A stretch of 46,473 nucleotides of DNA, taken from sequence record OP142323.1; one strand, given 5' to 3'. The stretch is from Staphylococcus phage Lacachita. The notes beneath the pieces were generated by a model. The model did no database searches. It was not told the origin of the DNA and was given only the letters and a program-made list of their open reading frames with translations. Of this stretch, positions 10,658-45,711 are shown in pieces. The position numbers and the translations under genes were made by a program. Every line of letters starts with the position of its first letter. Positions within the stretch are counted from its first letter, which is position 1.

Positions 10658-13600
10658 ATGGCAAGTGTAAAGGAGTTATATGCCAAGATTAGTGCCACTG
10701 CTGAAGGTTTTAATAAGACAATGGATAGTATATCTAGCAAGACAAGACAGACAGCTAAGAGCATATCCAGTCAATCTAATATCATGAGCAAAAGCCTACA
10801 GGGTATCGGTAAAGCTGGGCGTAGCTTTGACAACATAGGAAACAAAATACAAGGCGTTTCTAAAAGTGTCGGTGGCGTTGGCGAGAAAATGACTAACTCT
10901 ATAACTAAGCCGGCAGGTGTAGCAGTTGGCGCAGTTGGTGGGCTTGTCGGTGCTTTAGGTTTCAAACGTCTTGTCGGAATGGATCAGGCAGAAGCTAAGT
11001 TAAAAGGTATCGGTCTTGCAGGGAAAGACGTTACAAAAATACAAAACCAAGTATCTAAGTCTATCGAAGGTAGTATGACAACTATGGCCGAAGGTACTGA
11101 CTTAGCAGCCGGTGCTTTAGGATCAGGTGTTAAAGAAGGAAAAGAATTAGAAAAATACATAAAAGCAGCAGGTAACGCTGCAGTAGGTGCTAATGTACCT
11201 GTAGCTGAAATGGGACAAATATTCAGTCGTGTTAAAGGTCAGGGTAAATTAGCCGGAACTGAATTAGAAATGATGGAAGAACGTTTACCGGGATTCACTT
11301 CTACAATGGCAAGAGAAATGGGCTTGTCTATGGAAGAATTTAGAGACAAAGTTTCAGCCGGAGAGGTTGGATACGATGAGTTCTTAAAAGGTGTTGAAGC
11401 TAGAGCGGGTAAATCGGCAGAAGCTCAATCTCAAACATTTATGGGTATGCTTACCAACACTAAAAACTATTTAGGAATGATTGGAGAAGCATTTCTACAA
11501 CCCGCATTTAAAGAGGCTAAAGTTGTATTAGCTGATCTCGTTAATACTTTAAATAGCGATTCCCTAAGAGAAAGCGCTGCAGAAGCAGGTAAAGTAGTAG
11601 CGCCAGCCTTTGCTTTCCTAGCTAAAGCAGTTACAGGAACAATTAAAGCATTCTTAAATCTACCCGGTCCAGTATTAGGCGCAATTGGTGCTTTAGGTGG
11701 TATATTAATTGCTATTGGTCCGGTTCTTACAGGTTTTGCTAAATTAGGTGGTATGATCGGCGGAATGTTCAAAACGTTCGGATCATTACTATCATTCGTG
11801 TCAGCATTAAACCCAGTAGGACTAATTATCATGGGTATTGTTGCGGCAGTCGCAGCATTAGGTACAGCTTTCTATATCGCTTATCAGAAATCAGAAACAT
11901 TTAGAAACTTCATCAATGGTATAGGCACTATGATAAGTGGTGCCATTGGTTGGATTAAACAATTTGGTCAAGCAATCGGTGCGCTTTTCTCAGGAAATAC
12001 TGGAGAGGGCGTTAACATATTAGAAAAGCTAGGTTTTAATCAAAGTCAAATATCAGCGATACAGGGTATGGTATCAAGTCTTAAAAGTATATTTACTGAA
12101 TTAGGACGAGTGTTAGCGATAACATTTAATGAGATGAAAGGCGCTTGGAATGGAGTAGCTAGTGCATTCACTGGATCAATTCCATTTATTAAAATGGCGT
12201 TCTCTAACATGGTAGCAATACTAGGTCCGATATTTATGGCTTTAGTGAATGTTGTTAAGACAGTGTTCACAACTATAATTTCTGTCATTCGTGGCGCTTT
12301 CCAAATGATACAGGGCGTTATACAAATATTTAGCGGTCTTGTACAGGGCGACTGGTCGTTAGTATGGCAAGGCGTAGTAAATATATTCAAAGGTTTCTTT
12401 GGTATATTAGTTGCCTTAGTTAAACAGCTTGTCATGACGCTATTCTATATAGTTAAAGGATTGGCTACTAGTTTAGGTAATGCCTTACGCATTGCTTTTG
12501 GCGTCGTCAAAAATATCATCGTCGGTATTTTCAACGGTATCAAGTGGGTAGTAGTTACAATATTTAAAAGCATGGTTAATGCTATCGTTGTCAGCGCACA
12601 AACATTGTGGTTGAGAATAACACAAATTTTTAATGCACTTAAATTTGCTATTACAGCTATATGGAATGGAATTAAATTTGTTTCTGTAGCAGTATGGAAT
12701 AGTATTAAGTTTTTAGTAGTTGGTTTCGTTCGAACTATGAAAAATTTAATAATGATGATACTTGGCGGACTGAAAGCCGGTATATTGGCAATTTGGAACG
12801 GAATCAAGTTTGTCACAATGTTTGTTTGGAATTTAATCAAGAATAGAGTTATAGCCAATGCTCGTATCATGAAGAATTTAGTCGTTGCCATATTTAGAAG
12901 TTTAAAAGCTATCGTTTCTGCTATATGGAACGGACTTAAAAACTTTGTCATCTTAGTATGGAACACATTAAAAAATAGAGTAATTGCAATTACTCGTATT
13001 TTGAAAAATATCGTAATTTCAGTAATACGAATAATGAAAAATATCGTTATTGCAACATTTAGAATAATGAAGAACATTGTTATTGCAGTGTGGAACGCAT
13101 TGAAAAATAGAGTTATCGCAGTTGCTCGTATCATGAAAAACATTGTTATTACAGTTATTCGAACATTGAAGAATGTTGTTATTAGCATATTTAGAGCATT
13201 GAAAAATGTAGCGATTGCTATTTGGAATGGAATTAAAAATAAAGTTATTTCTTTAGCTCGAACAATGAAGAACGTTGCTATATCAATAGTTCGCGCAATG
13301 AAAAACGCGATACTTGGAATTTGGAAAGCGCTCAAAAACGTAACAATTTCAATTTGGAACGCAATCAAAAATAAAGTAATCGGTTTAGCTCGCGGTTTGA
13401 AGAGCGCTGCACTTAGTGTTTTCCGTTCATTGAAGTCAGGTATTACTGGAATATGGAATGGTATAAAATCTGTTACATCTAAAGTATGGAACGGAATTAA
13501 AAATGTAGCTATCGGCGCAGCTAAAGGAATGAAAAGTAAAGTCTTAGGTTTATTTGGTTCCATGAAAAACGGAATCAAAAAACAAATTGATAACATCAAA

Positions 13601-25185: not shown

Positions 25186-25272
25186 TGACTTCAATAAGAA
25201 CATATAAACAAGCGTCGAAGTATCTAAAGTATATGGAAGGTAAAGCATGGAATCCGGACAAAGCTTATGGAT
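25185..25272 (+). CDS. endolysin exon 1 (N-terminus of CHAP domain)
   Basis: Translation 'MTSIRTYKQASKYLKYMEGKAWNPDKAYG', with RBS GAGGAGGA. Unspliced, the frame stops at 25299-25301. Confidence 0.7.
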
Positions 25273-26277
25273 TAATTGATAGTCCATATAAAACCTATTG
25301 AATTGCTGGGAACCCCTAACGTAAAGTCGAGGGCAATCAGCAGCGAAGCCTTTGTGGTAATAGCAAAGGAACGTTCAACGACTAAGTGCATACAATCGTA
25401 TGACAGCGGTAGGTATTCTTGATACAAATAAATGACATGCTATAATCAAGACAACAATTACGGAAAGGTGTTTTGATTATGGTTAATAGTGTTGAAACTG
25501 GAAAAAGATATAACAATATAAAAGTTTTAGAGTATTCTCATACAAACAAACACAACAAGAGAAAATACAAATGTAAATGTATGGTATGTGGCAAAATTTT
25601 TATAACGTTAGGCACTACAGTTAAAACAGGTAGGCTAAAAAGTTGTGGTTGTTTATCTAATAAAAAAGCCCAAGAAAGAATGAAAAAGCATGGAATGCAT
25701 GGCACACAAATATATAATCGTTGGAAAGGCATGAAATCAAGATGTAGGAGTAAATCATATCATGCTTATCATAGATATAACGGTAAAGGTATAACTGTTT
25801 GTGAACGGTGGTTAAATGATTTTATGAATTTTTACAATGATATGAATGATACATTCTTTGAAGGTGCTGAATTAGATAGAATAGACAATAGCAAAGGTTA
25901 TTATCCTGAAAATTGTAGGTGGGTTACGCACAAGCAAAACTGCAACAACAGAGATAAATATAAAAATAACACCGGTTATACAGGAATACATTTTGGAAAG
26001 AAAAATAAAACTTATCAAGTTAATATGTGTCACAAAAGAAAAAGTATTTATATCGGAAGTTACAAAAATATAAAAGATGCAGTAAATGCAAGAAAATCAT
26101 TTATATTAAAATTCAACAAAGATAATGGGACAAATTACAAATATGAAGAGTATCAAGAATAATGATATAGTCTAGTCTTATATGAAAGTATAAGGTTTCT
26201 AAAACAGAAACTATTTAACGTTACACAAAATTATAGAGAAATTTATAATCAGAGAGGCGTTAAATATAATATTAACG
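25273..26277 (+). mobile_element. group I intron interrupting the endolysin gene (carries an HNH homing endonuclease ORF)
   Basis: P1 pairing: exon GGAU (25269-72) with intron GUCC (25282-85), including the U.G wobble at the splice site. P10 pairing: intron AUUGAU (25275-80) with 3' exon AUCAAU (26278-83). The intron ends in G26277. Length 1005 nt, which preserves frame. Confidence 0.7.
25479..26162 (+). CDS. intron-encoded HNH-family homing endonuclease
   Basis: 227 aa from ATG 25479 after GAAAGGTG. Basic and Cys-rich, with an HNH_3-like 'LDRIDNSKGYYPENCRWVTHKQN' segment. It lies wholly inside the intron. Confidence 0.7.
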   Translation: MVNSVETGKRYNNIKVLEYSHTNKHNKRKYKCKCMVCGKIFITLGTTVKTGRLKSCGCLSNKKAQERMKKHGMHGTQIYNRWKGMKSRCRSKSYHAYHRYNGKGITVCERWLNDFMNFYNDMNDTFFEGAELDRIDNSKGYYPENCRWVTHKQNCNNRDKYKNNTGYTGIHFGKKNKTYQVNMCHKRKSIYIGSYKNIKDAVNARKSFILKFNKDNGTNYKYEEYQE

Positions 26278-27837: not shown

Positions 27838-27866
27838 TTTACATTCTTAAATACTAATGCTATAAT
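27838..27866 (+). promoter_or_regulatory. consensus sigma-A-type promoter (TTTACA-17-TATAAT) at the lysis/early junction
   Basis: -35 TTTACA at 27838-43, 17-nt spacer, -10 TATAAT at 27861-66. RBS AGGAGG and ATG 27897 lie downstream. Confidence 0.6.
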
Positions 27867-27896
27867 TAGTATGTAATATTTAAGGAGGGAAACAAA

Positions 27897-29528: not shown

Positions 29529-29646
29529 TCAATTTTAAGGGGGTATTTAGGGGCGTTTATAAAAATAGGTATAATTTATCCTTTTTTACATTTACGCTTT
29601 AAAATACCCCCAAATTTTTAAAAATAAAGGCATATGAGGTAATTAT

Positions 29647-30324
29647 ATGACTGAAGTTTACAAATACAAAGGTAACGGAGACGGAACTTATAACATTCAA
29701 ATAGATAACGTGAAGATACCATTCAAAAATTTAGAAATGTTAACACGTGGCTTAGGAACAGAAGCGGAATTAAAGTTTATTGATCCTGACGACATATCAC
29801 ATAAACAACGTAAACTAATATTTGCATTGCTAGGCGATATTGAAGAACACACAGGCGATCCAGTAGAGTATCGTCGACACAGATTAACATTAGAGTTTAT
29901 GGCTTATAAAAACATAGATGAATTTAGTTTATCTAACTGCAGCATGACAGACGCACGAGAGTTTATAGAGTTTATATTAGCGTTCATATTTAGAAATAAT
30001 ATACCTATCACTTATGACACATCAGACTTACTCAAAGAAGATAAAGCCTATTTATACTATGCAACAATTAATCGTAAGTGCGTTATATGTGGCGAAGAGA
30101 ATGCACAACTTGCACATCACTATCACATCGGTAGAGGTATGAACAGAAACAAAATGGATCATTACGGTTACGAAGTATTAGCTTTGTGCCATAAACACCA
30201 TCGCTTACAACACAACATAGGTATAAGAACGTTTGATAAAAAATACGCTTTAGATAAGTCTTGGATCAAAGTTGATGAGCGATTAAATAAAATGTTGAAA
30301 GGACAAAAATACGAGGAGAATTAA
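29647..30324 (+). CDS. Cys/His-rich putative HNH-motif nuclease
   Basis: 225 aa. 'CVICGEENAQLAHHYHIGRG...CHKHHRLQHN' resembles an HNH/zinc-binding motif. Confidence 0.35.
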   Translation: MTEVYKYKGNGDGTYNIQIDNVKIPFKNLEMLTRGLGTEAELKFIDPDDISHKQRKLIFALLGDIEEHTGDPVEYRRHRLTLEFMAYKNIDEFSLSNCSMTDAREFIEFILAFIFRNNIPITYDTSDLLKEDKAYLYYATINRKCVICGEENAQLAHHYHIGRGMNRNKMDHYGYEVLALCHKHHRLQHNIGIRTFDKKYALDKSWIKVDERLNKMLKGQKYEEN

Positions 30325-30326
30325 TT

Positions 30327-30509
30327 ATGAGAGAGAAAATAGAAGCAGTAATCAATTCTGATTTATCAGGATACGCAATCGAAAAGCATTGTAAAACTGT
30401 ATCGCAAAATACAGTAAGCAGCCTAAGAACAGGTAAATACGAAATAGATAATTTAAGATTTAAAACTTGCGAAGAGTTATCAAAGGTTTATGACGATCTT
30501 ATTAAATGA
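30327..30509 (+). CDS. hypothetical protein (60 aa)
   Basis: Translationally coupled ORF. A UUCG-tetraloop hairpin plus U-tract at 30509-30528 follows it. Confidence 0.3.
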   Translation: MREKIEAVINSDLSGYAIEKHCKTVSQNTVSSLRTGKYEIDNLRFKTCEELSKVYDDLIK

Positions 30510-30537
30510 GTGCTTCGGCACTTTTTATATTCGATAG

Positions 30538-30566
30538 TTTACATTTTATGTTGTAAATGTTAAAAT
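30538..30566 (+). promoter_or_regulatory. early promoter P-A (TTTACA-17-TAAAAT) with embedded TTTACA/TGTAAA inverted repeat
   Basis: -35 at 30538-43 and -10 at 30561-66. The spacer matches the 34802-18 spacer at 14 of 17 positions. Confidence 0.5.
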
Positions 30567-30594
30567 TATTTTAGGTTTTTAAGGAGGAATGATT

Positions 30595-30864
30595 ATGAGT
30601 AATCAAATAACAGTGAATAAAGATTTAATAACAGAAAGCAGAATGAACGGTAATAATAAAATCGTTTATATGTATTTGAAATTATTAAGCAATGGAGGAG
30701 ATCTAGTACCTATACCATTGCAACATATCGCTGACGAATTATTTATAAACGTAAACACTGTGAAATCGTCAATAAAGATTTTAAGAGAGTTTGGATATAT
30801 TAAAGTTCATAAGCAGTTAGGCAATAGAGGAAGTATTTTAAATGCGTACGAAATAGTTAAATAA
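30595..30864 (+). CDS. small HTH DNA-binding protein
   Basis: 89 aa from ATG 30595, 7 nt after AAGGAGGA. An HTH-like segment 'LQHIADELFINVNTVKSSIKIL' is present. Confidence 0.4.
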   Translation: MSNQITVNKDLITESRMNGNNKIVYMYLKLLSNGGDLVPIPLQHIADELFINVNTVKSSIKILREFGYIKVHKQLGNRGSILNAYEIVK

Positions 30865-30877
30865 AGGAGATAAAATT

Positions 30878-31780
30878 ATGAGTAACAAAAGATATTATTG
30901 GTTGAAATTGAAAGAAGATTTTTTCGAAGATGAAACAATAGAATTTATAGAAAGTCAAAAAAACGGTGTGAAGTACGTAAACTTTTATTTAAAATTATTG
31001 CTTAAATCTTTAAAAAATGAAGGTTATTTAATTAGATATATTGGAGAAAAACTTATTCCTTACGATCTTGAAGCACTTTCTCGATTAACCAATTGCGACT
31101 TCGACACTGTTAGAAGTGCAATGGACTTATTCACAGAAATTGGCATAGTTAAAAAAATGGAAAGTGGCGAGATATATTTAACACAAATAAACGAAATGAT
31201 TGGATCAGAAACCAAAAAAGCAGAAAGTATGCGTCGTCTAAGAGCTAAAAGAAGAAAAAACGAGCAAATAAATGAGGGTGGTAACAATGTTACCGGCGAG
31301 TTACCTGAAGTTACTGAACCGTTACTCAAACGTTACACAGAGAAAGAGATAGAGTTAGATAAAGAGTTAGATAAAGAGTTAGATAAAGAGTTAGAGAAAA
31401 GAGATAAGAATTTAGATAAAGAGAACAAGAATGTTAAGAGTAACAGTGAAGATGAAAAAAAAGAAAGCATACCAGTATCAGAAGTATTTATACTGTTACA
31501 AAATGAATATACTAATCAAGTAACGCCAATCAAACTAGAAAGTTTAATACCAGAGATAGAGAAGATCGGGGAAAATGCTACTGACATAATATCTTTAGCT
31601 ATTGACTATGCTAAGAACAAGACAAACAATTTAAATTACCTAGTTAAAATTATTAATAACTGGGCAGATGAGGGTATTAGTACAGTAGAACAAGCTAAAG
31701 AAAAAATAAGCGGTAAACAAAAGAAGAATAACACTAGCTGGATAGATGACGAACTTAACACATTCGGAGGGGACGCCTAA
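30878..31780 (+). CDS. replisome organiser (phage_rep_org_N + DnaD-like C-terminus)
   Basis: The N-terminus 'YYWLKLKEDFFEDETIEFIESQ...FYLKLLLKS' is typical of the phage replisome organiser N domain. A central ELDK repeat is encoded by DNA iterons. The C-terminus is DnaD-like. Confidence 0.7.
   Translation: MSNKRYYWLKLKEDFFEDETIEFIESQKNGVKYVNFYLKLLLKSLKNEGYLIRYIGEKLIPYDLEALSRLTNCDFDTVRSAMDLFTEIGIVKKMESGEIYLTQINEMIGSETKKAESMRRLRAKRRKNEQINEGGNNVTGELPEVTEPLLKRYTEKEIELDKELDKELDKELEKRDKNLDKENKNVKSNSEDEKKESIPVSEVFILLQNEYTNQVTPIKLESLIPEIEKIGENATDIISLAIDYAKNKTNNLNYLVKIINNWADEGISTVEQAKEKISGKQKKNNTSWIDDELNTFGGDA
31353..31412 (+). repeat. 4-5 tandem 12-bp iterons (GAGTTAGATAAA) inside the replisome organiser gene; candidate origin
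   Basis: Three perfect copies and two degenerate copies, flanked by an A-rich region. Confidence 0.5.
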
Positions 31781-32145
31781 TGAGTATGACTAGAAAAGAA
31801 GGTCTTAAAATACTAAAGTTAGTAAGCGACTTATTTGAGATTGACTTTGACGAAAACAAAGGTAATGCTTGGCTAGATATACTAATGCAAAAAGGCGACT
31901 ACGAAGAAACAGTAAAAAATATCAAAAGACGAGCTGTAGACGGTAGCCGCTTCAAACCTAGAATATCTGAAATAGTTATCAAACCAGTTAAAAAGAATGA
32001 TTTTTATAAAAACTATGATGAAACAAAAACACATGCTTATAAAAAGAAAAACGATAAACAATATGCACAAGTTATAAAGAAGTTTGAAATGTTAAGAGAT
32101 AAATTACAAAAAGAGGTTGAAGCAGATGAAGAACAACGTATATAG
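31780..32145 (+). CDS. hypothetical protein (possible helicase-loading accessory)
   Basis: 121-aa basic protein between the organiser and helicase genes, with ATGA coupling. Confidence 0.3.
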   Translation: MSMTRKEGLKILKLVSDLFEIDFDENKGNAWLDILMQKGDYEETVKNIKRRAVDGSRFKPRISEIVIKPVKKNDFYKNYDETKTHAYKKKNDKQYAQVIKKFEMLRDKLQKEVEADEEQRI

Positions 32146-33397
32146 CTTGAATACTGAACAGAGTATATTAGCTAATCTTATACAAGACAGCAGTTTGATT
32201 GACGACTTAAAAATATCGCCTGAAATGTTTCAAGATCAATCAGCTGCTAATGTTTTAAGATTTATCTTAGAACGTGGAGAAGTCAATATACAAGAAATTT
32301 ATCAAAAATCTAGGTCAGATCATTCTTTCATGAGTACGGATATGTTGGGAGCTTTATATAACACCGACGAAGTAACTCGAGTGATGTTTAAAAACGATCA
32401 ACAAGATTTATTAGAACAATACAAAAGCCGACGTGTTCAAGAAATAACGAGAGAATATATTAAAACACCTATGACTAAACAAGAAAGAGAAAACATGCAA
32501 TCCGAAATAGAGAGCGTCAATAACATATCTATGAACGAAGATAATAAGTTAAGTAAACAACTTTTAACTTTTGTTGATGATTTCTTGGACGACAAACCGA
32601 AACAATTCATCAAAACAGGATTGTCGAATGTAGACGCGCAAATATACGGCTTCGAGCCAACACAACTTATTGTCATAGGCGCTAGACCGGGTGCTGGTAA
32701 AACAGCTATCGCGTTAAACATGATGTATAATATAGCTAGGAATGGTTATCCGGTGTCTTTCTTTAGTTTAGAAACAACGGATCAAAAAATACTTAGCAGA
32801 CTTGTTTCTAGCACGTCAGGTGTATCAGGTAATAAAATAGATTTTAAAAATGACTTGAGTGATAAAGAAGTAACTCAAGTAATGAGTGCTATTGATAGAC
32901 TAAGCAATTTAGAAAGTAGCGGTTTTCAAATTATAGATAGTGGGTACGTCACTATGAATGATATAAGACGTGTAGCAAAAGAAAAGCACGACAAGCCTCA
33001 AGTTATATTCATAGACTACTTGCAACTAATCAAAGTTGAGGGTAGCAAAAAGGATAGACGATTAGAGATTGACGAGATAAGCAGAAACTTAAAACTCATT
33101 GCAAAAGAGAATAATTGTGTGATTGTAGCATTGTCACAATTAAGTAGAGGCGTAGAAAGTAGGCAAGATAAAAGACCTACGCTATCTGATCTAAAAGAGT
33201 CGGGCGGTATTGAGCAAGACTCAAATATGGTTATGTTTCTTTACAGAGAGGATTATTACGACACAACATTGCAAGATGATACGACAGGAATATCTGAAAT
33301 AGAACTGAATGTAGCCAAAAACAGAGATGGATCAGTAGGCACAGTATTGCTCAATTTCCATAAATTCACACAAAAATATACAAGTAAGGTTATTTAA
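32117..33397 (+). CDS. dnaB: replicative DNA helicase (DnaB family)
   Basis: Walker A 'GARPGAGKTAIALN', Walker B 'VIFIDYLQLI' and 'LSQLSRGVESRQDKRP' are all present. 426 aa. Confidence 0.85.
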   Translation: MKQMKNNVYSLNTEQSILANLIQDSSLIDDLKISPEMFQDQSAANVLRFILERGEVNIQEIYQKSRSDHSFMSTDMLGALYNTDEVTRVMFKNDQQDLLEQYKSRRVQEITREYIKTPMTKQERENMQSEIESVNNISMNEDNKLSKQLLTFVDDFLDDKPKQFIKTGLSNVDAQIYGFEPTQLIVIGARPGAGKTAIALNMMYNIARNGYPVSFFSLETTDQKILSRLVSSTSGVSGNKIDFKNDLSDKEVTQVMSAIDRLSNLESSGFQIIDSGYVTMNDIRRVAKEKHDKPQVIFIDYLQLIKVEGSKKDRRLEIDEISRNLKLIAKENNCVIVALSQLSRGVESRQDKRPTLSDLKESGGIEQDSNMVMFLYREDYYDTTLQDDTTGISEIELNVAKNRDGSVGTVLLNFHKFTQKYTSKVI

Positions 33398-33398
33398 A

Positions 33399-33659
33399 AT
33401 GTTTAAAACTATTGACGATGAGAAAGCAGCAATTAAAAAACTATATAAAGAAACACAAGATCCCGTTCTAGCAATTCATCTTATCGCATTAGGTAGAAGC
33501 ATAAATGAATTGTTAGAACGTGGAGATTTAATTATTTTTGATATTTTGAACGAAGAAAATTTAAAAAAAGTATTGGATAATATTGATTATGATAAAATAA
33601 ATAAATGGTTAAAACGAAAAGGCTATTTAGAGGACGATACAGACGATTTATTGTTTTGA
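33399..33659 (+). CDS. hypothetical protein
   Basis: 86 aa, coupled to the helicase stop. Confidence 0.3.
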   Translation: MFKTIDDEKAAIKKLYKETQDPVLAIHLIALGRSINELLERGDLIIFDILNEENLKKVLDNIDYDKINKWLKRKGYLEDDTDDLLF

Positions 33660-33738
33660 TGATTAATATATCCGAAAAGTAAAAAATAAACGAAAATGAC
33701 GCCTTAGAATTAAAAATAAAGGCATAGGAGGACTTAAT

Positions 33739-34206
33739 ATGTTGAACAGAGTAGTATTAGTAGGAAGATTGACGAAAGATCCGGAATTTAGAACAACGCA
33801 AAGTGGTGTAGAAGTAACGACATTTACTTTAGCGATCAACAGAAATTTTACAAATGCACAGGGAGAACGTGAAGCAGATTTCATAAACGTTGTAACTTTT
33901 AATAAACAAGCAGTCAATGTAAACAACTATTTGAGCAAAGGAAGTTTGGCAGGTGTAGACGGCCGCTTACAATCTCGTAGTTACGAAAACCAAGAAGGAC
34001 GACGTGTATTCGTTACAGAGGTTGTAGCAGATAACGTTCAATTTTTAGAGCCTAAAGGAAACAACAATCAACAGAACAACCAACAAAATAACGGATACCA
34101 ACAAACAGGACAAGCACAGCAAAACAAACAAACACCTATGGGAGATAATCCATTCGCAAATGCTAACGGTCCAATTGATGTGAGTGATGATGATTTACCT
34201 TTTTAA
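33739..34206 (+). CDS. ssb: single-stranded DNA-binding protein
   Basis: OB-fold N-terminus '[16 protein letters not shown]', a Gln/Asn-rich linker and an acidic 'DDDLPF' tail. Confidence 0.9.
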
Positions 34207-34256
34207 ATAAAAATATTATTTTATAAAATATAAAACGAATTAACAGGAGATCTAAA

Positions 34257-34772
34257 ATGATTGAATGGAAACCGATTGAAGGTTATGAAGGAAAATACTA
34301 TATAAACCAATACGGGCAAATAATAAGTCATTACTTTAAAGAGCCTAGAATGTTAAGTATTAAAAGTACAGACAACGAGTATTTAAGAGTAAATCTAACT
34401 CGCAAAGGGAAACGAAAAAGAAGGTCAATACACAGACTTGTTGCTGAAACATTTAAGCCTAATACAACCGGAGAAGATTTGCAGATAAATCACATAGACG
34501 GGGACAAATTTAATAACCATGTAGACAATTTAGAATGGTGTACGTGTAGAGATAATATATCTCACGCTTTCGAAAAAGGATTGAACCAAAACAACAACAG
34601 GATAATATTAACCGATATAGAAACAAATGAAGAGACACACTTTATAAGTCAAAGGAGAGCGAGTGAATACTTAGGACAAAAACAAAACTATATATGCAGA
34701 ATGTTTTCTAAAGGTATAAACATCGTCGAAAGCAAGAACGGTAAAATATACAAAGTAAAGCGGGAAAATTAA
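34257..34772 (+). CDS. free-standing HNH homing endonuclease (NUMOD4 + HNH_3)
   Basis: 'WKPIEGYEGKYYINQYGQI' (NUMOD4) and 'INHIDGDKFNNHVDNLEW' (HNH). Confidence 0.8.
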   Translation: MIEWKPIEGYEGKYYINQYGQIISHYFKEPRMLSIKSTDNEYLRVNLTRKGKRKRRSIHRLVAETFKPNTTGEDLQINHIDGDKFNNHVDNLEWCTCRDNISHAFEKGLNQNNNRIILTDIETNEETHFISQRRASEYLGQKQNYICRMFSKGINIVESKNGKIYKVKREN

Positions 34773-34793
34773 TTCCCGTTTTATTATTATTTT
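34761..34793 (+). terminator. terminator after HNH gene
   Basis: Stem CGGGAA / TTCCCG followed by TTTTATTATTATTTT. Confidence 0.5.
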
Positions 34794-34795
34794 AG

Positions 34796-34824
34796 TTTAC
34801 AATATTTGTTGTAAATGTTACAAT
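34796..34824 (+). promoter_or_regulatory. early promoter P-B (TTTACA-17-TACAAT) with TTTACA/TGTAAA inverted repeat and downstream TTACAAT-GTAT-ATTGTAA palindrome
   Basis: Near-identical to the promoter at 30538-66. An additional palindrome lies at 34817-34838, before the XRE-type gene. Confidence 0.5.
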
Positions 34825-34856
34825 GTATATTGTAAACGATAGAAAGAGGTGGACAA

Positions 34857-35048
34857 ATGTACTTTTACGACGAAGAGGAAATGCGAAACCGTTTGAAAGA
34901 AAAAGGTTTGAGCATTAGAGAATTAAGCAAACGAGTTGATTTGCCATACAATACAGTTTACGCGATATTCAAAGGTCAAAGTAACATAGACGGAGTGAGA
35001 TTGAGAGTTTACAAAAAGATTGTAAATGAATTGTGGAAAGGAGAGTAA
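34857..35048 (+). CDS. XRE-family HTH transcriptional regulator (Cro-like)
   Basis: 'LSIRELSKRVDLPYNTVYAIFKG' is a classic HTH. 63 aa. Confidence 0.5.
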   Translation: MYFYDEEEMRNRLKEKGLSIRELSKRVDLPYNTVYAIFKGQSNIDGVRLRVYKKIVNELWKGE

Positions 35049-41562: not shown

Positions 41563-41883
41563 ATGATAGTTTATTTACCGCATTACGATAACGGAGAAGA
41601 AACTTGTAACAATTCGCATGGCGTGAGTGATAAAGCATATACATCGTTAGAAGATGCTATCCAAGAGATAAAAGAAATGGGCTATGTTATTCAAGAAGAT
41701 AAAAGTGATGAGATTGAATACATGGGCTTTCCGGATATTGAAATAAACAGTGAAATTTTACCGTATGCTTTTTATAAAGTTCCTTTTGAAAGTTACAGAA
41801 AAACATCCACTTATTTTTTTGATGATAGAGAATTTGCGTTTATTAACAAAATAGAATTAGTGGAGGGAGAAACTGATGATTAA
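41563..41883 (+). CDS. hypothetical protein
   Basis: ATG 41563 follows AAGGAGTG. Confidence 0.3.
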   Translation: MIVYLPHYDNGEETCNNSHGVSDKAYTSLEDAIQEIKEMGYVIQEDKSDEIEYMGFPDIEINSEILPYAFYKVPFESYRKTSTYFFDDREFAFINKIELVEGETDD

Positions 41884-42034
41884 ACGCATATTAAAAATTT
41901 GGTTTACTATCGCTATGTATGAGTTAGGCAAATGGATTGGTAGAGAGTTGTATTACTACTTAACAGCTAATGATGATGTTGAAGCGCCAAACGACTTTAA
42001 CGAAGAAGATCACATACATTTAAACAATTTATAA
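41876..42034 (+). CDS. RinB-like small protein (52 aa)
   Basis: 'MIKRILKIWFTIAMYELGKW...TANDDVEAPNDF' resembles the staphylococcal-phage RinB family. It falls below the ORF-track length cutoff. Confidence 0.45.
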   Translation: MIKRILKIWFTIAMYELGKWIGRELYYYLTANDDVEAPNDFNEEDHIHLNNL

Positions 42035-42841: not shown

Positions 42842-43138
42842 TTGACTATGAAACCTATATGTATTATATTTATTATAGCAATTATATATTGCTAATGATT
42901 TAATCCTTTGTTTATCTTTTTCTTGTAATTTGTAATTTGATTTTCTCATTATCATTTCTGACTGCATGACTTACTTAGTACGCCGGCTATTTTAGTCGGT
43001 GTATTTTTTTGTCTGATTTTAATAATGAATAAAACATAACTCGTGTTTATCTCGTATATATTTTGTTATATTTTCGTGCATATCTTGTTCGTATTGTGTT
43101 ATAATAGAGTATAAGCAAAAACAGAAAGTAGGGAAGGT

Positions 43139-43303
43139 ATGAAAGGAGCGTACGATGTACACGAAGTCGCAGAATTTTTAGAAATAAGCGTTCAGTCAGT
43201 GAGGAAATACATCAAAGAAGGAAAGCTCAAAGCTGTATTGATCGCAAACAAACATGTTATATCAGAACGTAATTATCAGAAGTTTATTGACGGAGATTGG
43301 TAG
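43139..43303 (+). CDS. small HTH DNA-binding protein (55 aa), first gene of the putative late operon
   Basis: 'VHEVAEFLEISVQSVRKYIKEGKL' is an HTH. RBS GGGAAGG. Preceded by an extended -10 TGTTATAAT at 43097-43105. Confidence 0.45.
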   Translation: MKGAYDVHEVAEFLEISVQSVRKYIKEGKLKAVLIANKHVISERNYQKFIDGDW

Positions 43304-44211: not shown

Positions 44212-45711
44212 ATGGAAATTATAAACAAAAGTATATATGACATTATAGATTATGATGACAACCCTAGATACAACGACGAGGCAGTAGATTATGTAAAAGA
44301 AAGCATTAAAGAATTTGGTTTCAAAGTACCGATTATTATTGATGAAAATGATGTAATTATAGCAGGACATACAAGAAAGAAAGCAGCACTCGAGATAGGT
44401 ATTAAAGAGGTGCCAGTTATTGTTGCCGATGATCTTACACCGCAACAAGTTGACGCATTTAGATTGGCCGACAATAAAGTCGCTGAATTTAGTGAGTGGG
44501 ATGAAGATTTATTGATGAGTGAACTCAATAAACTAGATGATTTAGACATGAGTGCATTCGGATTTGAAGATATGGAGTTAGACTTAGAAGATACTGAAAT
44601 AGAAGAAGAAGAGATTGAAGAAGATGAAGTGGTAGAAATACCGGAAGAACCTAAGTCTAAATTCGGACAAATATATCAACTCGGCAATCATAGGCTCATG
44701 TGTGGCGACAGTACAAGTGATGAAGATGTTAGCAAGCTGATGAACGGACAACAGGCGTCGTTAGTGTTTACTGATCCACCTTATGGAGCTAAGAAACAAA
44801 AAGACGGTGTACTCAATGACAATCTTAACTATGATAGCTTGTTAGAATTTAATAAGTTATGGATACCACTATCATTTAAATATTTAAAAGAGAATGGCAG
44901 TTGGTATTGTTGGGGATTAGATCAACCACTTATGGATATTTACACAGAGATATTAAAGCCTAAGATTAAGAATAACGAGATTGTATTCAAAAACCTAATC
45001 ACATGGGATAAAGGATCAGGACAGGGGCAAAATTCTGATGCCCTAACTAAATATGCAACAGCAGATGAGAAGTGCTTATTTGTCGCTGGAGATGTAGACA
45101 GCATGCCTAACAATTTCTATGAAGGGTATCGACCTATATTGAACGCATTAAAAGAACAAGCCGAAAAAGTAGGATTAGGATCTAAGAAGTACAAAGAAAT
45201 CATAGGAACACAGATGTATAGTCATTACTTCTCAGACTCTCAATTCTCACTAATACCACGAGAAGTATTTGCTAAGTTAAAGAAATACTACGGAGAAGCG
45301 TGGGAATTAACATGGGAAGAATTAAGCCGTATGATAAACAAAGCTACACCCGGCCATAATGATTATGTAGAAGAGTACAGAATGAAGAGGTCATATTTCA
45401 ATAACACACATGATAATATGAATAACGTATGGCACATTAACAGAATAGTATCAGGCACAGAAGAGTATAGAGACAAAGGCCAACACGTTACACCTAAACC
45501 CCTAGCCCTATGTAGTCGAGGTATTAAATCAAGTTCTAAAGAAAAAGAAATAGTCCTCGATTTATTCGGAGGCAGTGGTAGTGTGCTTATAGCTAGTGAG
45601 TTAAACAATAGATCATGCTATACAATGGAATACCAGCCGCAATATATTGATGCAATTATAGAAAGATGGGAAAGACGTACAGGCAGAAAGGCGGAGCTAC
45701 TTAATGGATAA
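44212..45711 (+). CDS. ParB-like nuclease domain fused to beta-class N6-adenine/N4-cytosine DNA methyltransferase
   Basis: N-terminal ParBc region 'VPIIIDENDVIIAGHTRKKAAL'. Motif IV 'FTDPPYGA' precedes motif I 'VLDLFGGSGS'. Confidence 0.8.
   Translation: MEIINKSIYDIIDYDDNPRYNDEAVDYVKESIKEFGFKVPIIIDENDVIIAGHTRKKAALEIGIKEVPVIVADDLTPQQVDAFRLADNKVAEFSEWDEDLLMSELNKLDDLDMSAFGFEDMELDLEDTEIEEEEIEEDEVVEIPEEPKSKFGQIYQLGNHRLMCGDSTSDEDVSKLMNGQQASLVFTDPPYGAKKQKDGVLNDNLNYDSLLEFNKLWIPLSFKYLKENGSWYCWGLDQPLMDIYTEILKPKIKNNEIVFKNLITWDKGSGQGQNSDALTKYATADEKCLFVAGDVDSMPNNFYEGYRPILNALKEQAEKVGLGSKKYKEIIGTQMYSHYFSDSQFSLIPREVFAKLKKYYGEAWELTWEELSRMINKATPGHNDYVEEYRMKRSYFNNTHDNMNNVWHINRIVSGTEEYRDKGQHVTPKPLALCSRGIKSSSKEKEIVLDLFGGSGSVLIASELNNRSCYTMEYQPQYIDAIIERWERRTGRKAELLNG

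Follow-up and report, generated by a model that had tools for sequence, protein, structure and literature searches.

The genome of Staphylococcus phage Lacachita (OP142323.1; 46,473 bp) was analysed over its whole length, which is called the window below, and the subject of the analysis is a 20-bp palindrome that occurs three times over two promoters of the early region. The closest phages are Sazerac, CUB-EPI_14, Southeast and S-CoN_Ph27 (95-98% identity), which belong to a group of Staphylococcus epidermidis siphoviruses. All genes of the annotated early and middle region lie on the plus strand, and for CUB-EPI_14 every coding sequence was described on a single strand (PMC9230115). The published descriptions of this phage group list neither an integrase nor a repressor (PMC9230115, PMC10286716), and the Lacachita paper gives just the counts of predicted promoters and terminators (PMC10286716). 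Three promoters, namely P1, P2 and P3, are predicted to split the early region into three terminator-bounded operons, for recombination, for replication and for an XRE gene followed by many small genes. The predicted P1 operon contains DUF1270, one unknown gene, Gp157, ERF and HNHc and ends with gp30327, which encodes 60 aa. The predicted P2 operon contains genes for a winged-helix protein, a replisome organiser, a helicase loader, DnaB, SSB and an HNH protein, and the predicted P3 operon contains the XRE gene and about 25 more, RinB and RecU among them, and ends with a strong terminator (42977-43005). The only helix-turn-helix (HTH) proteins identified in the early region are of 60, 63 and 89 aa. 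The features in question are as follows:

27838-27866, plus strand: promoter P1, TTTACA-17-TATAAT with TG; first early operon, after the lysin terminator.
30327-30509, plus strand: gp30327, a 60-aa HTH protein, last gene of the P1 operon; candidate operator-binding repressor.
30508-30523, plus strand: weak intrinsic terminator ahead of P2, a UUCG-loop hairpin and U tract (-7.6 kcal/mol, z -2.6).
30538-30566, plus strand: promoter P2, TTTACA (30538-30543), 17-nt spacer TTTTATGTTGTAAATGT and TAAAAT (30561-30566), with TG at 30558-30559.
30538-30557, plus strand: candidate operator O1, halves TTTACATTTT and ATGTTGTAAA, 7/10 symmetric, covering the P2 -35 and most of the spacer.
30595-30864, plus strand: gp30595, an 89-aa winged-helix protein of replication-initiator type, first gene of the P2 operon.
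34754-34785, plus strand: strong intrinsic terminator ahead of P3, a hairpin and U tract (-15.9 kcal/mol, z -6.5).
34796-34824, plus strand: promoter P3, TTTACA (34796-34801), 17-nt spacer ATATTTGTTGTAAATGT and TACAAT (34819-34824), with TG at 34816-34817.
34796-34815, plus strand: candidate operator O2, halves TTTACAATAT and TTGTTGTAAA, perfect 7-bp arms and a 6-bp centre, 8/10 symmetric.
34817-34836, plus strand: candidate operator O3, halves GTTACAATGT and ATATTGTAAA (GTTACAATGTATATTGTAAA), one mismatch, 8/10 symmetric, over the P3 -10 and the predicted start.
34857-35048, plus strand: gp34857, a 63-aa XRE/HTH_3 protein, first gene of the P3 operon; candidate autorepressor.

An earlier note on this DNA, made from its letters alone, had described P2 and P3 as two near-identical promoters, each placed after a terminator. 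Both promoter sequences could be read directly as claimed, a hairpin with a U tract was found ahead of each of them (30508-30523 and 34754-34785), and the match of the spacers at 14 of 17 positions was confirmed. The binomial probability of this match at the local base composition is about 8e-5, and the common spacer of P2 and P3 is not due to chance. Both promoters score 10/12 against the sigma-70 consensus and carry TG at -15/-14 (ATGTTAAAAT, ATGTTACAAT). Both are intergenic, lie upstream of a ribosome-binding site and a same-strand gene and are conserved in relatives; they are very probably real host sigma-A promoters with an extended -10. A minus-strand promoter formed from the right arm (TTTACA-18-AATAAT at P3) was considered and discarded, as it has no counterpart at P2 and would run into the terminator. 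As a separate observation, the -35 of about 20 early promoter copies from six lineages (the window and the related sequences L003-L014 and L020-L023) is always exactly TTTACA and never TTGACA, with or without a palindrome.

The inverted repeat TTTACA/TGTAAA, which the earlier note had given an 11-nt gap, is present at both promoters with a gap of 8 nt. Because of the miscount, the suggested motif scan with TTTACA-N11-TGTAAA yielded 0 matches; the N8 pattern was found exactly at P2 and P3. The repeat is best read as a putative 20-bp operator, TTTACAA-N6-TTGTAAA, beginning at the first base of the -35. The extra palindrome reported behind the second promoter, TTACAAT-GTAT-ATTGTAA, does exist (34818-34835), but it is not a separate element and represents the third 20-mer copy, O3. 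The distance between O2 and O3 is 21 bp, or two helical turns, and together they span the -35, -10 and +1 of P3. A genome-wide search with the 14 specified bases gave three matches with at most one mismatch, all of them at P2 and P3, and matches with three mismatches were at background (18 found vs. 12.6 expected). The looser pattern TTTACA-N4-14-TGTAAA occurs 3 times vs. 0.22 expected, and three of only five plus-strand copies of TTGTAAA are operator arms. The window contains 28 20-mers with a symmetry of at least 8/10, including 3 within the 168 promoter-zone positions of the three early promoters, where 0.10 are expected (Poisson P 1.6e-4). P1 has the same -35 but lacks the TTTACAA/TTGTAAA palindrome (5/10 symmetric at the -35 register). 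One further pair of arms was found:

35008-35026, plus strand: TTTACAA-AAAGA-TTGTAAA, with a gap of 7 nt between TTTACA and TGTAAA, inside the gp34857 codons for the conserved VYKKIVN.

This pair was discounted as a fourth site and is probably a chance occurrence, because in Sazerac, CUB-EPI_14 and Southeast, which are the closest relatives checked, a synonymous change (ATT to ATA) destroys its arm.

The features described above suggest an operator with three sites, at which a small HTH protein of the phage would bind as a dimer and repress P2 and P3. We consider this reading slightly more probable than its negation, with gp34857 and gp30327 about equally placed as the binder. The dimer would bind O1-O3 and block RNA polymerase; as the protein accumulates, it would exert negative feedback on P3 and shut down the transcription of the replication genes from P2. 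The binder could be gp34857, which would be made from P3 and act as an autorepressor, or gp30327, which resembles the N-terminal domain (NTD) of AcrIIA15 and the Aca proteins and would be made from P1. We infer promoter activity, protein binding, repression and the identity of the binder from the sequence. It is textbook biology that small HTH repressors bind palindromic operators over the early promoters of phages; the papers found on this phage group describe neither the operator considered here nor its third copy, the Aca-like candidate or the concerted promoter evolution. The shared operator for one regulator proposed in the earlier note thus stands as a common operator-like repeat, doubled at P3 and unique in the genome, while its assignment to the XRE protein gp34857 is not established.

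XRE protein homologues with the same gene order were found in L007 (78% identity), in the equorum-type metagenomic phages (L003-L010, about 60%) and in TPWB-09 (46%); homologues of gp30327 were found in the same genomes and also in L011 and L012. IMG/VR scans with both HTH families (gp34857 and gp30327) revealed no relatives. In each lineage, 2-5 promoters have exactly TTTACA as the -35, followed by a spacer of 17 nt; they are located at equivalent positions in five lineages, and the spacer sequence is lineage-specific. Spacers agree at 12-17 of 17 positions within a genome vs. 7-11 of 17 between orthologous P3 copies across lineages, and the three substitutions that separate the window from L007 (GTAAATGT to GGTAATGG) are common to P2 and P3. 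Since the likeness within genomes exceeds that between genomes, the promoter copies evolved in concert.

Such likeness could also be explained with no operator at all. P2 and P3 would then be copies of an ancestral terminator-promoter cassette, alike via recent duplication or gene conversion; phage ERF/SSB recombination could drive the conversion, sigma-A constraints (the -35 and the TGn extended -10) would add likeness, and the palindromes would be accidents of AT-rich sequence beside TTTACA. The cassettes are indeed near-identical within each lineage, and in the equorum-type phages and TPWB-09 the identity extends beyond the -10 into the 5' untranslated region. In addition, all of the approximately 20 copies carry TTTACA, a GTT-like mid-spacer block and ATGn before the -10, whether a palindrome is present or not, and the equorum-type lineage lacks the palindrome. 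A mosaic junction beside P2, described below, also suggests that the cassettes mark module boundaries. However, the similarity between P2 and P3 in the window ends sharply at -3 and at -10, with unrelated flanks, and the conversion of a patch of about 10 nt across 4.3 kb would be unusual. O3 is an extra copy of the palindrome and not of a promoter, and the symmetry and the position of the natural substitutions, which are considered next, also speak against simple copying. Cassette copying seems rather unlikely to us but is the main rival of the operator reading.

The symmetry was scored over 20-mers that all start with the first T of the -35, as symmetric positions out of 10:

Window P3: dyad 8/10.
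Window P2: dyad 7/10.
L007 P3: dyad 8/10.
L007 P2: dyad 6/10 only.
L011 P2: dyad 8/10.
TPWB-09 P3: dyad 7/10.
TPWB-09 Px: dyad 6/10 only.
Equorum-type group: dyad 4/10; palindrome absent at this register.

The same-register dyad was found in four of five lineages (the window, L007, L011 and TPWB-09), which share ancestry; the P value per lineage is 0.002-0.02 when the -35 is held fixed and the rest of the site is shuffled. The inner three pairs are perfect but differ between lineages, with CTT facing AAG in L007 and TTA facing TAA in L011. Selection for symmetry, and not for a particular sequence, would leave such a pattern, which speaks against the copying of a cassette. P3, the XRE gene's own promoter, has the better palindrome in all three lineages with both promoters (the window, L007 and TPWB-09). 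P3 is conserved in 15 genomes, in which O2 varies only at positions 8, 13 and 14 and O3 is invariant. P2 is invariant in Sazerac, CUB-EPI_14 and Southeast and identical to the window in L021 and L022, and in L020 and L023 O1 deviates at a single central position, 13. Natural substitutions in O1-O3 are confined to the site centre and do not hit the arms, which is a further point against cassette copying. S-CoN_Ph26, with a 39-nt match to P3, was not used; its record looks error-rich and is fragmented into many tiny ORFs.

A binder encoded by the host was also considered, namely a Staphylococcus regulator such as a winged-helix repressor of TACA/TGTA motifs, which would tie early transcription to host physiology. 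BlaI/MecI operators share a TACA/TGTA core. The arms of the Lacachita sites hold TACA and TGTA, which form the core of the CopY-family cop box TACAnnTGTA (PMC7253601), and the invariance of the TTTACA -35 in all lineages could be explained by a conserved host factor. However, TACA and TGTA are 8 bp apart here vs. 2 in the cop box, and the right arm varies among phage lineages, some of them from closely related samples, which agrees better with a factor specific to the phage. The literature was searched for a staphylococcal operator of this form, and none was found; we regard a host regulator as very improbable. Neither the CopY cop box nor the phi13/TP901-1 CI consensus (AGTTCAYR) fits as the identity of the operator.

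Two other observations were made among the relatives. In L007 (about 960-1106) and L011 (about 1036-1121), the region equivalent to P2 is followed by conserved non-coding DNA (aaaagcccgtagcaatcagtaagtgttagcgcacttaatgattatgctcaactaatcgtta...); the L007 copy adjoins a DUF559-type endonuclease gene, and no Rfam match was found for the stretch of L007 and L011. L005 (4944), L006 (3738) and L008 (947) contain a mobile module that encodes a 119-aa HTH_3 protein and an anti-repressor. The TTTACA promoter of this module contains an inverted repeat, TTACAT-TACGTG-ATGTAT, that also begins in the -35.

As for the proteins, the claim of the earlier note that a small HTH gene follows each promoter is correct with regard to the folds, HTH_36 at 30595 and HTH_3/XRE at 34857; the product of the former is of replication-initiator type and not regulator-like. 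The product of gp34857 matches Pfam HTH_3 (E 1.9e-6; 28.3 bits vs. a cut-off of 23) and HTH_26 (E 5e-5), and its AlphaFold model consists of four helices with a predicted local distance difference test score (pLDDT) of 82.5. The nearest solved folds are HipB (the closest), the SinR N-terminal domain, the restriction-modification controller proteins (C-proteins) C.Esp1396I and C.AhdI and P22 c2, with fold-search E values of at least 0.08; all of these are dimeric repressors of palindromic sites. The structure of HipB was solved with a 20-mer operator bound. The HipB half-sites are 8 bp apart, as are the arms of the Lacachita site. As P3 is the gene's own promoter and has the best palindrome, gp34857 is a good candidate for the operator binder. 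The two candidates are not paralogues, since a BLASTP comparison of gp34857 and gp30327 gave E 1.6.

The winged-helix protein gp30595 matches HTH_36 (E 1.3e-6) and, among PHROG profiles, DnaD-like and replication-initiation N-terminal domains. In L021 and L022, P2 and gp30327 are identical to the window, and the counterpart of gp30595 is 55% identical; the mosaic junction between the window and L021 falls inside the gp30595 gene, about 50-100 bp downstream of P2. The product of gp30595 is therefore an unlikely binder and was rejected as the partner of the operator, because the P2 operator is unchanged where the gp30595 gene was swapped.

This junction bears on a further explanation, in which the cassettes would be mainly recombination linkers for the shuffling of modules between co-infecting phages, their identity being selected for homology. 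Early promoter/stem-loop cassettes (PeSL) of T4 have been proposed as module-shuffling linkers, and virulent Gram-positive phages have repeated early promoters. As with PeSL, repeated near-identical cassettes of a terminator and an early promoter bracket modules that vary among the relatives of Lacachita, with Ant/HTH inserts and unlike replication modules; a terminator lies ahead of each promoter, and the junction with L021 is within about 100 bp of P2. Unlike in PeSL, the Lacachita copies hold the dyad site at only two of three promoters, and the L021 breakpoint lies downstream of the cassette, inside a gene. In addition, recombination between P2 and P3 in one genome would delete the replication genes, and dyad symmetry and O3 would stay unexplained. 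The function as a linker is compatible with an operator and not exclusive of it; as the main role of the cassettes, it seems quite improbable to us.

The second candidate binder, gp30327, which the earlier note had overlooked, ends 29 nt before O1. In a comparison with the PDB, its family profile matched AcrIIA15 (8JFR/8JFO; E 1.9e-8) and Aca11 (9LX2; E 0.012), and it also matches phrog_1529 and phrog_6831, both 'transcriptional regulator'. The dimer of the AcrIIA15 N-terminal domain from Staphylococcus binds 20-bp inverted repeats (IR1/IR2; PDB 8JFR, 8JFU) in its own promoter, one of them between the -35 and the -10 (PMC10901769, PMC7104187). In this complex, Q26 contacts A4/T17, and S25 and K31 contact G6; the halves of the crystal oligonucleotide are ATTATGACAA and ATGTCATAG (PMC10901769). 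The recognition helix of gp30327, VSQNTVSSLR, retains S25 and Q26; K31 is replaced by Ser. When the Lacachita site (TTTACAATAT and TTGTTGTAAA) is placed in the AcrIIA15 register, T2, T3, A4, A7 and their mirror positions are common to both, and the Ser that replaces K31 falls where the base is A and not G. The two systems thus share a homologous protein, a 20-bp site with TTA at positions 2-4 and the A4/T17 register, a site over the -35/spacer and two sites at one promoter. They differ in that gp30327 is free-standing (60 aa, without an anti-CRISPR domain) and that its half-site is TTTACAA vs. TTATGAC. The Lacachita sites lie in two downstream promoters, P2 and P3, and not in its own promoter P1, and the AcrIIA15 operators are 30 bp apart (counted from the oligonucleotide) vs. 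21 bp in Lacachita. No anti-CRISPR (acr) gene was identified adjoining gp30327, although no search for such genes was made.

Residue 26 and base 17 track each other among the lineages: Q and T17 in the window, L011 and TPWB-09, K and G17 in L007, and A with no palindrome in the equorum-type phages. This tracking is suggestive; the correlation does not discriminate between the candidates, because the recognition helix of the XRE protein differs between the same lineages too. P2 and gp30327 are inherited together where the replication module is swapped. Over the -10 of P1 lies a different palindrome (27852-27871, halves TACTAATGCT and ATAATTAGTA), a perfect 7-N6-7 TACTAAT-GCTATA-ATTAGTA, which is kept in CUB-EPI_14 and Southeast and broken (TGATAAT) in Sazerac and L020. 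The recognition helix of gp30327 is unchanged in both of the latter, and in Sazerac the whole protein is identical; as a site of gp30327 autoregulation, this palindrome is unsupported. All early promoters of the equorum-type group have, instead of the -35 dyad, a 20-bp pseudo-palindrome centred on the -10 (TAAACATAGT and ATTATGTGTA), in the same register as the P1 palindrome.

Members of the gp30327 family are widespread among phages of staphylococci and streptococci. In the three temperate phages examined (phi11, BM31 and PhiSepi-HH1), the homologue closes a small operon that follows the lysis genes near the genome end. PhiSepi-HH1 has a perfect 20-mer between the -35 and the -10, and phi11 and BM31 have palindromes of their own near the promoter. 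In these operons (BM31, L017 3580-4177; phi11, L018 900-1490; PhiSepi-HH1, L019 960-1513), one or two tiny ORFs of 30-55 aa, apparently hydrophobic, precede the homologue, and in phi11 and BM31 an inverted repeat CTTACA-N7-TGTAAG lies over the ribosome-binding site. The gp30327 gene itself contains a perfect 7-N6-7 palindrome, ACTGTAT-CGCAAA-ATACAGT (30396-30415), in its HTH-encoding part about 120 bp upstream of P2, with a lone TTGTAAA just before it at 30389.

Several points weigh against an operator bound by one of these proteins. No transcription-start, transcriptome or binding data were found in the papers searched on this phage group. Compared with shuffles of the promoter zones themselves, the enrichment of palindromes has a P value of only 0.014, and AT-rich DNA readily gives pseudo-palindromes. 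Because the -35 forces the left arm, only the right arm is independently informative. The dyad is poorer at P2 of L007 and at Px of TPWB-09, and it is lost in the equorum-type group, which nevertheless has both HTH genes. As all promoters descend from one ancestral cassette, the lineages are only partly independent. With regard to gp30327, the Aca precedent leads one to expect a site in its own promoter, and no conserved one was found at P1. Neither gp34857 nor gp30327 is preferred on the evidence.

A comparison with characterised repressors places the putative operator among several known arrangements. With the XRE autorepressors (HipB, C.AhdI, C.Esp1396I and phage Cro), gp34857 shares the four-helix XRE fold, a resemblance at the family level only, and the position of its gene directly behind a promoter with two phased palindromes over the -35 and -10. 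The HipB operators, TATCC-N8-GGATA, are repeated over the hipBA promoter. Unlike HipB and the C-proteins, gp34857 has no toxin or restriction-modification partner, and in contrast to all of these systems, the site recurs at a distant second promoter, P2. Gram-positive phage switches (A2, TP901-1 and phi13) are also similar in that their operators comprise several copies of a palindrome, some over promoter cores and one distant, which are served by one small repressor. Lactobacillus phage A2 has three-site 20-bp operators. In phi13, the operators are OR, OL and OD, with the half-site AGTTCAYR (PMC8516035). These switches differ in that their lysogenic and lytic promoters diverge, their CI carries an oligomerisation domain and their half-sites are different; Lacachita is one-stranded with no reported integrase.

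The earlier note had gone further and suggested a Cro-like switch. This was overstated, because no CI, divergent promoter or integrase is present: neither a divergent promoter nor an integrase was found in the annotated region, and lysogeny genes are unreported. Of the lambda-type CI/Cro hallmarks (divergent promoters, a CI repressor and integration), Lacachita has genes on one strand and no reported integrase or CI (PMC9230115, PMC10286716). With neither a CI partner nor a divergent promoter, the arrangement is not a bistable switch, and 'early shut-off or feedback repressor' fits better as a description.

Other features of the window were noted as well. Within the replisome-organiser gene, AAGAGTTAGAT occurs three times (31350-31398) and encodes ELDK repeats; as in other phages with a replisome-organiser gene, these repeats may be the replication origin. 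Origin-like repeats were also found in the equorum-type L003 (6631-6793), between an 85-aa winged-helix gene and the replication initiator, namely CCTTTGTAAATTTCTTTCA twice, inverted TTTTACAAA and GAACTTAGAT repeats. They contain TTGTAAA/TTTACAA words, whose link to the operator was dismissed as coincidence, the L003 protein being just 26% identical to gp30595. Two 49-nt leader/ribosome-binding-site stretches, at 29601-29649 before HNHc and at 33693-33741 before SSB, are 73% alike (TTAAAAATAAAGGCATAnGAGG). The RinB homologue of the P3 operon is located at 41876-42034. Downstream of the strong terminator at 42977-43005, an extended -10, TGTGtTATAAT (43095-43105), without a recognisable -35, precedes an HTH_17/MerR-like 54-aa gene (43139-43303), which is followed by the methylase and small terminase genes; it may be an activator-dependent late promoter. 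The lysis region contains a group I catalytic intron between the holin and amidase genes (25263-25530; Rfam RF00028, 60.9 bits), and one such non-coding RNA was already mentioned in the Lacachita paper (PMC10286716). In the structural region, long in-frame tandem repeats with periods of 33 and 132 nt and up to 12 copies (12626-13533) probably sit in the tape-measure gene.

The lifestyle of the group that includes Lacachita, CUB-EPI_14, Sazerac and Southeast is disputed: one paper recommends a member for phage therapy, and another argues for a temperate genus, with neither a repressor nor an integrase being known (PMC9230115, PMC10286716). The gene at 44212-45711 encodes ParB_N fused to an N6/N4 DNA methyltransferase (499 aa), the sole ParB_N match among the ten region proteins scanned, and the same fusion was found in related phages (L003). 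Its product appears to be the 'ParB' cited in support of a plasmid-prophage lifestyle (PMC10286716). By domain content it is not a partition protein, and that argument is therefore weakened.

A wider circuit could be imagined in which two repressors act in one direction, with gp30327 from the unregulated P1 and gp34857 from P3 competing or cooperating at O1-O3 and holding the replication and late genes off. We consider this improbable; if true, it would give a genus in which no integrase is reported, that of Lacachita, the carrier or pseudolysogenic state and partial immunity that were reported for this phage, and this immunity would be built from an Aca-type repressor and not from a CI/Cro pair. 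The reported immunity is 100-fold. The within-genome, lineage-specific likeness of the promoters is in itself a clean small case in which regulator co-evolution can be set against gene conversion. In addition, the AcrIIA15 DNA-binding domain has here a homologue that belongs to the core early region of a phage and has no known anti-CRISPR gene nearby. The putative operator, found only at the replication promoter and the next promoter and having two named candidate repressors, gives the dispute over the lifestyle of these phages a concrete object for testing.

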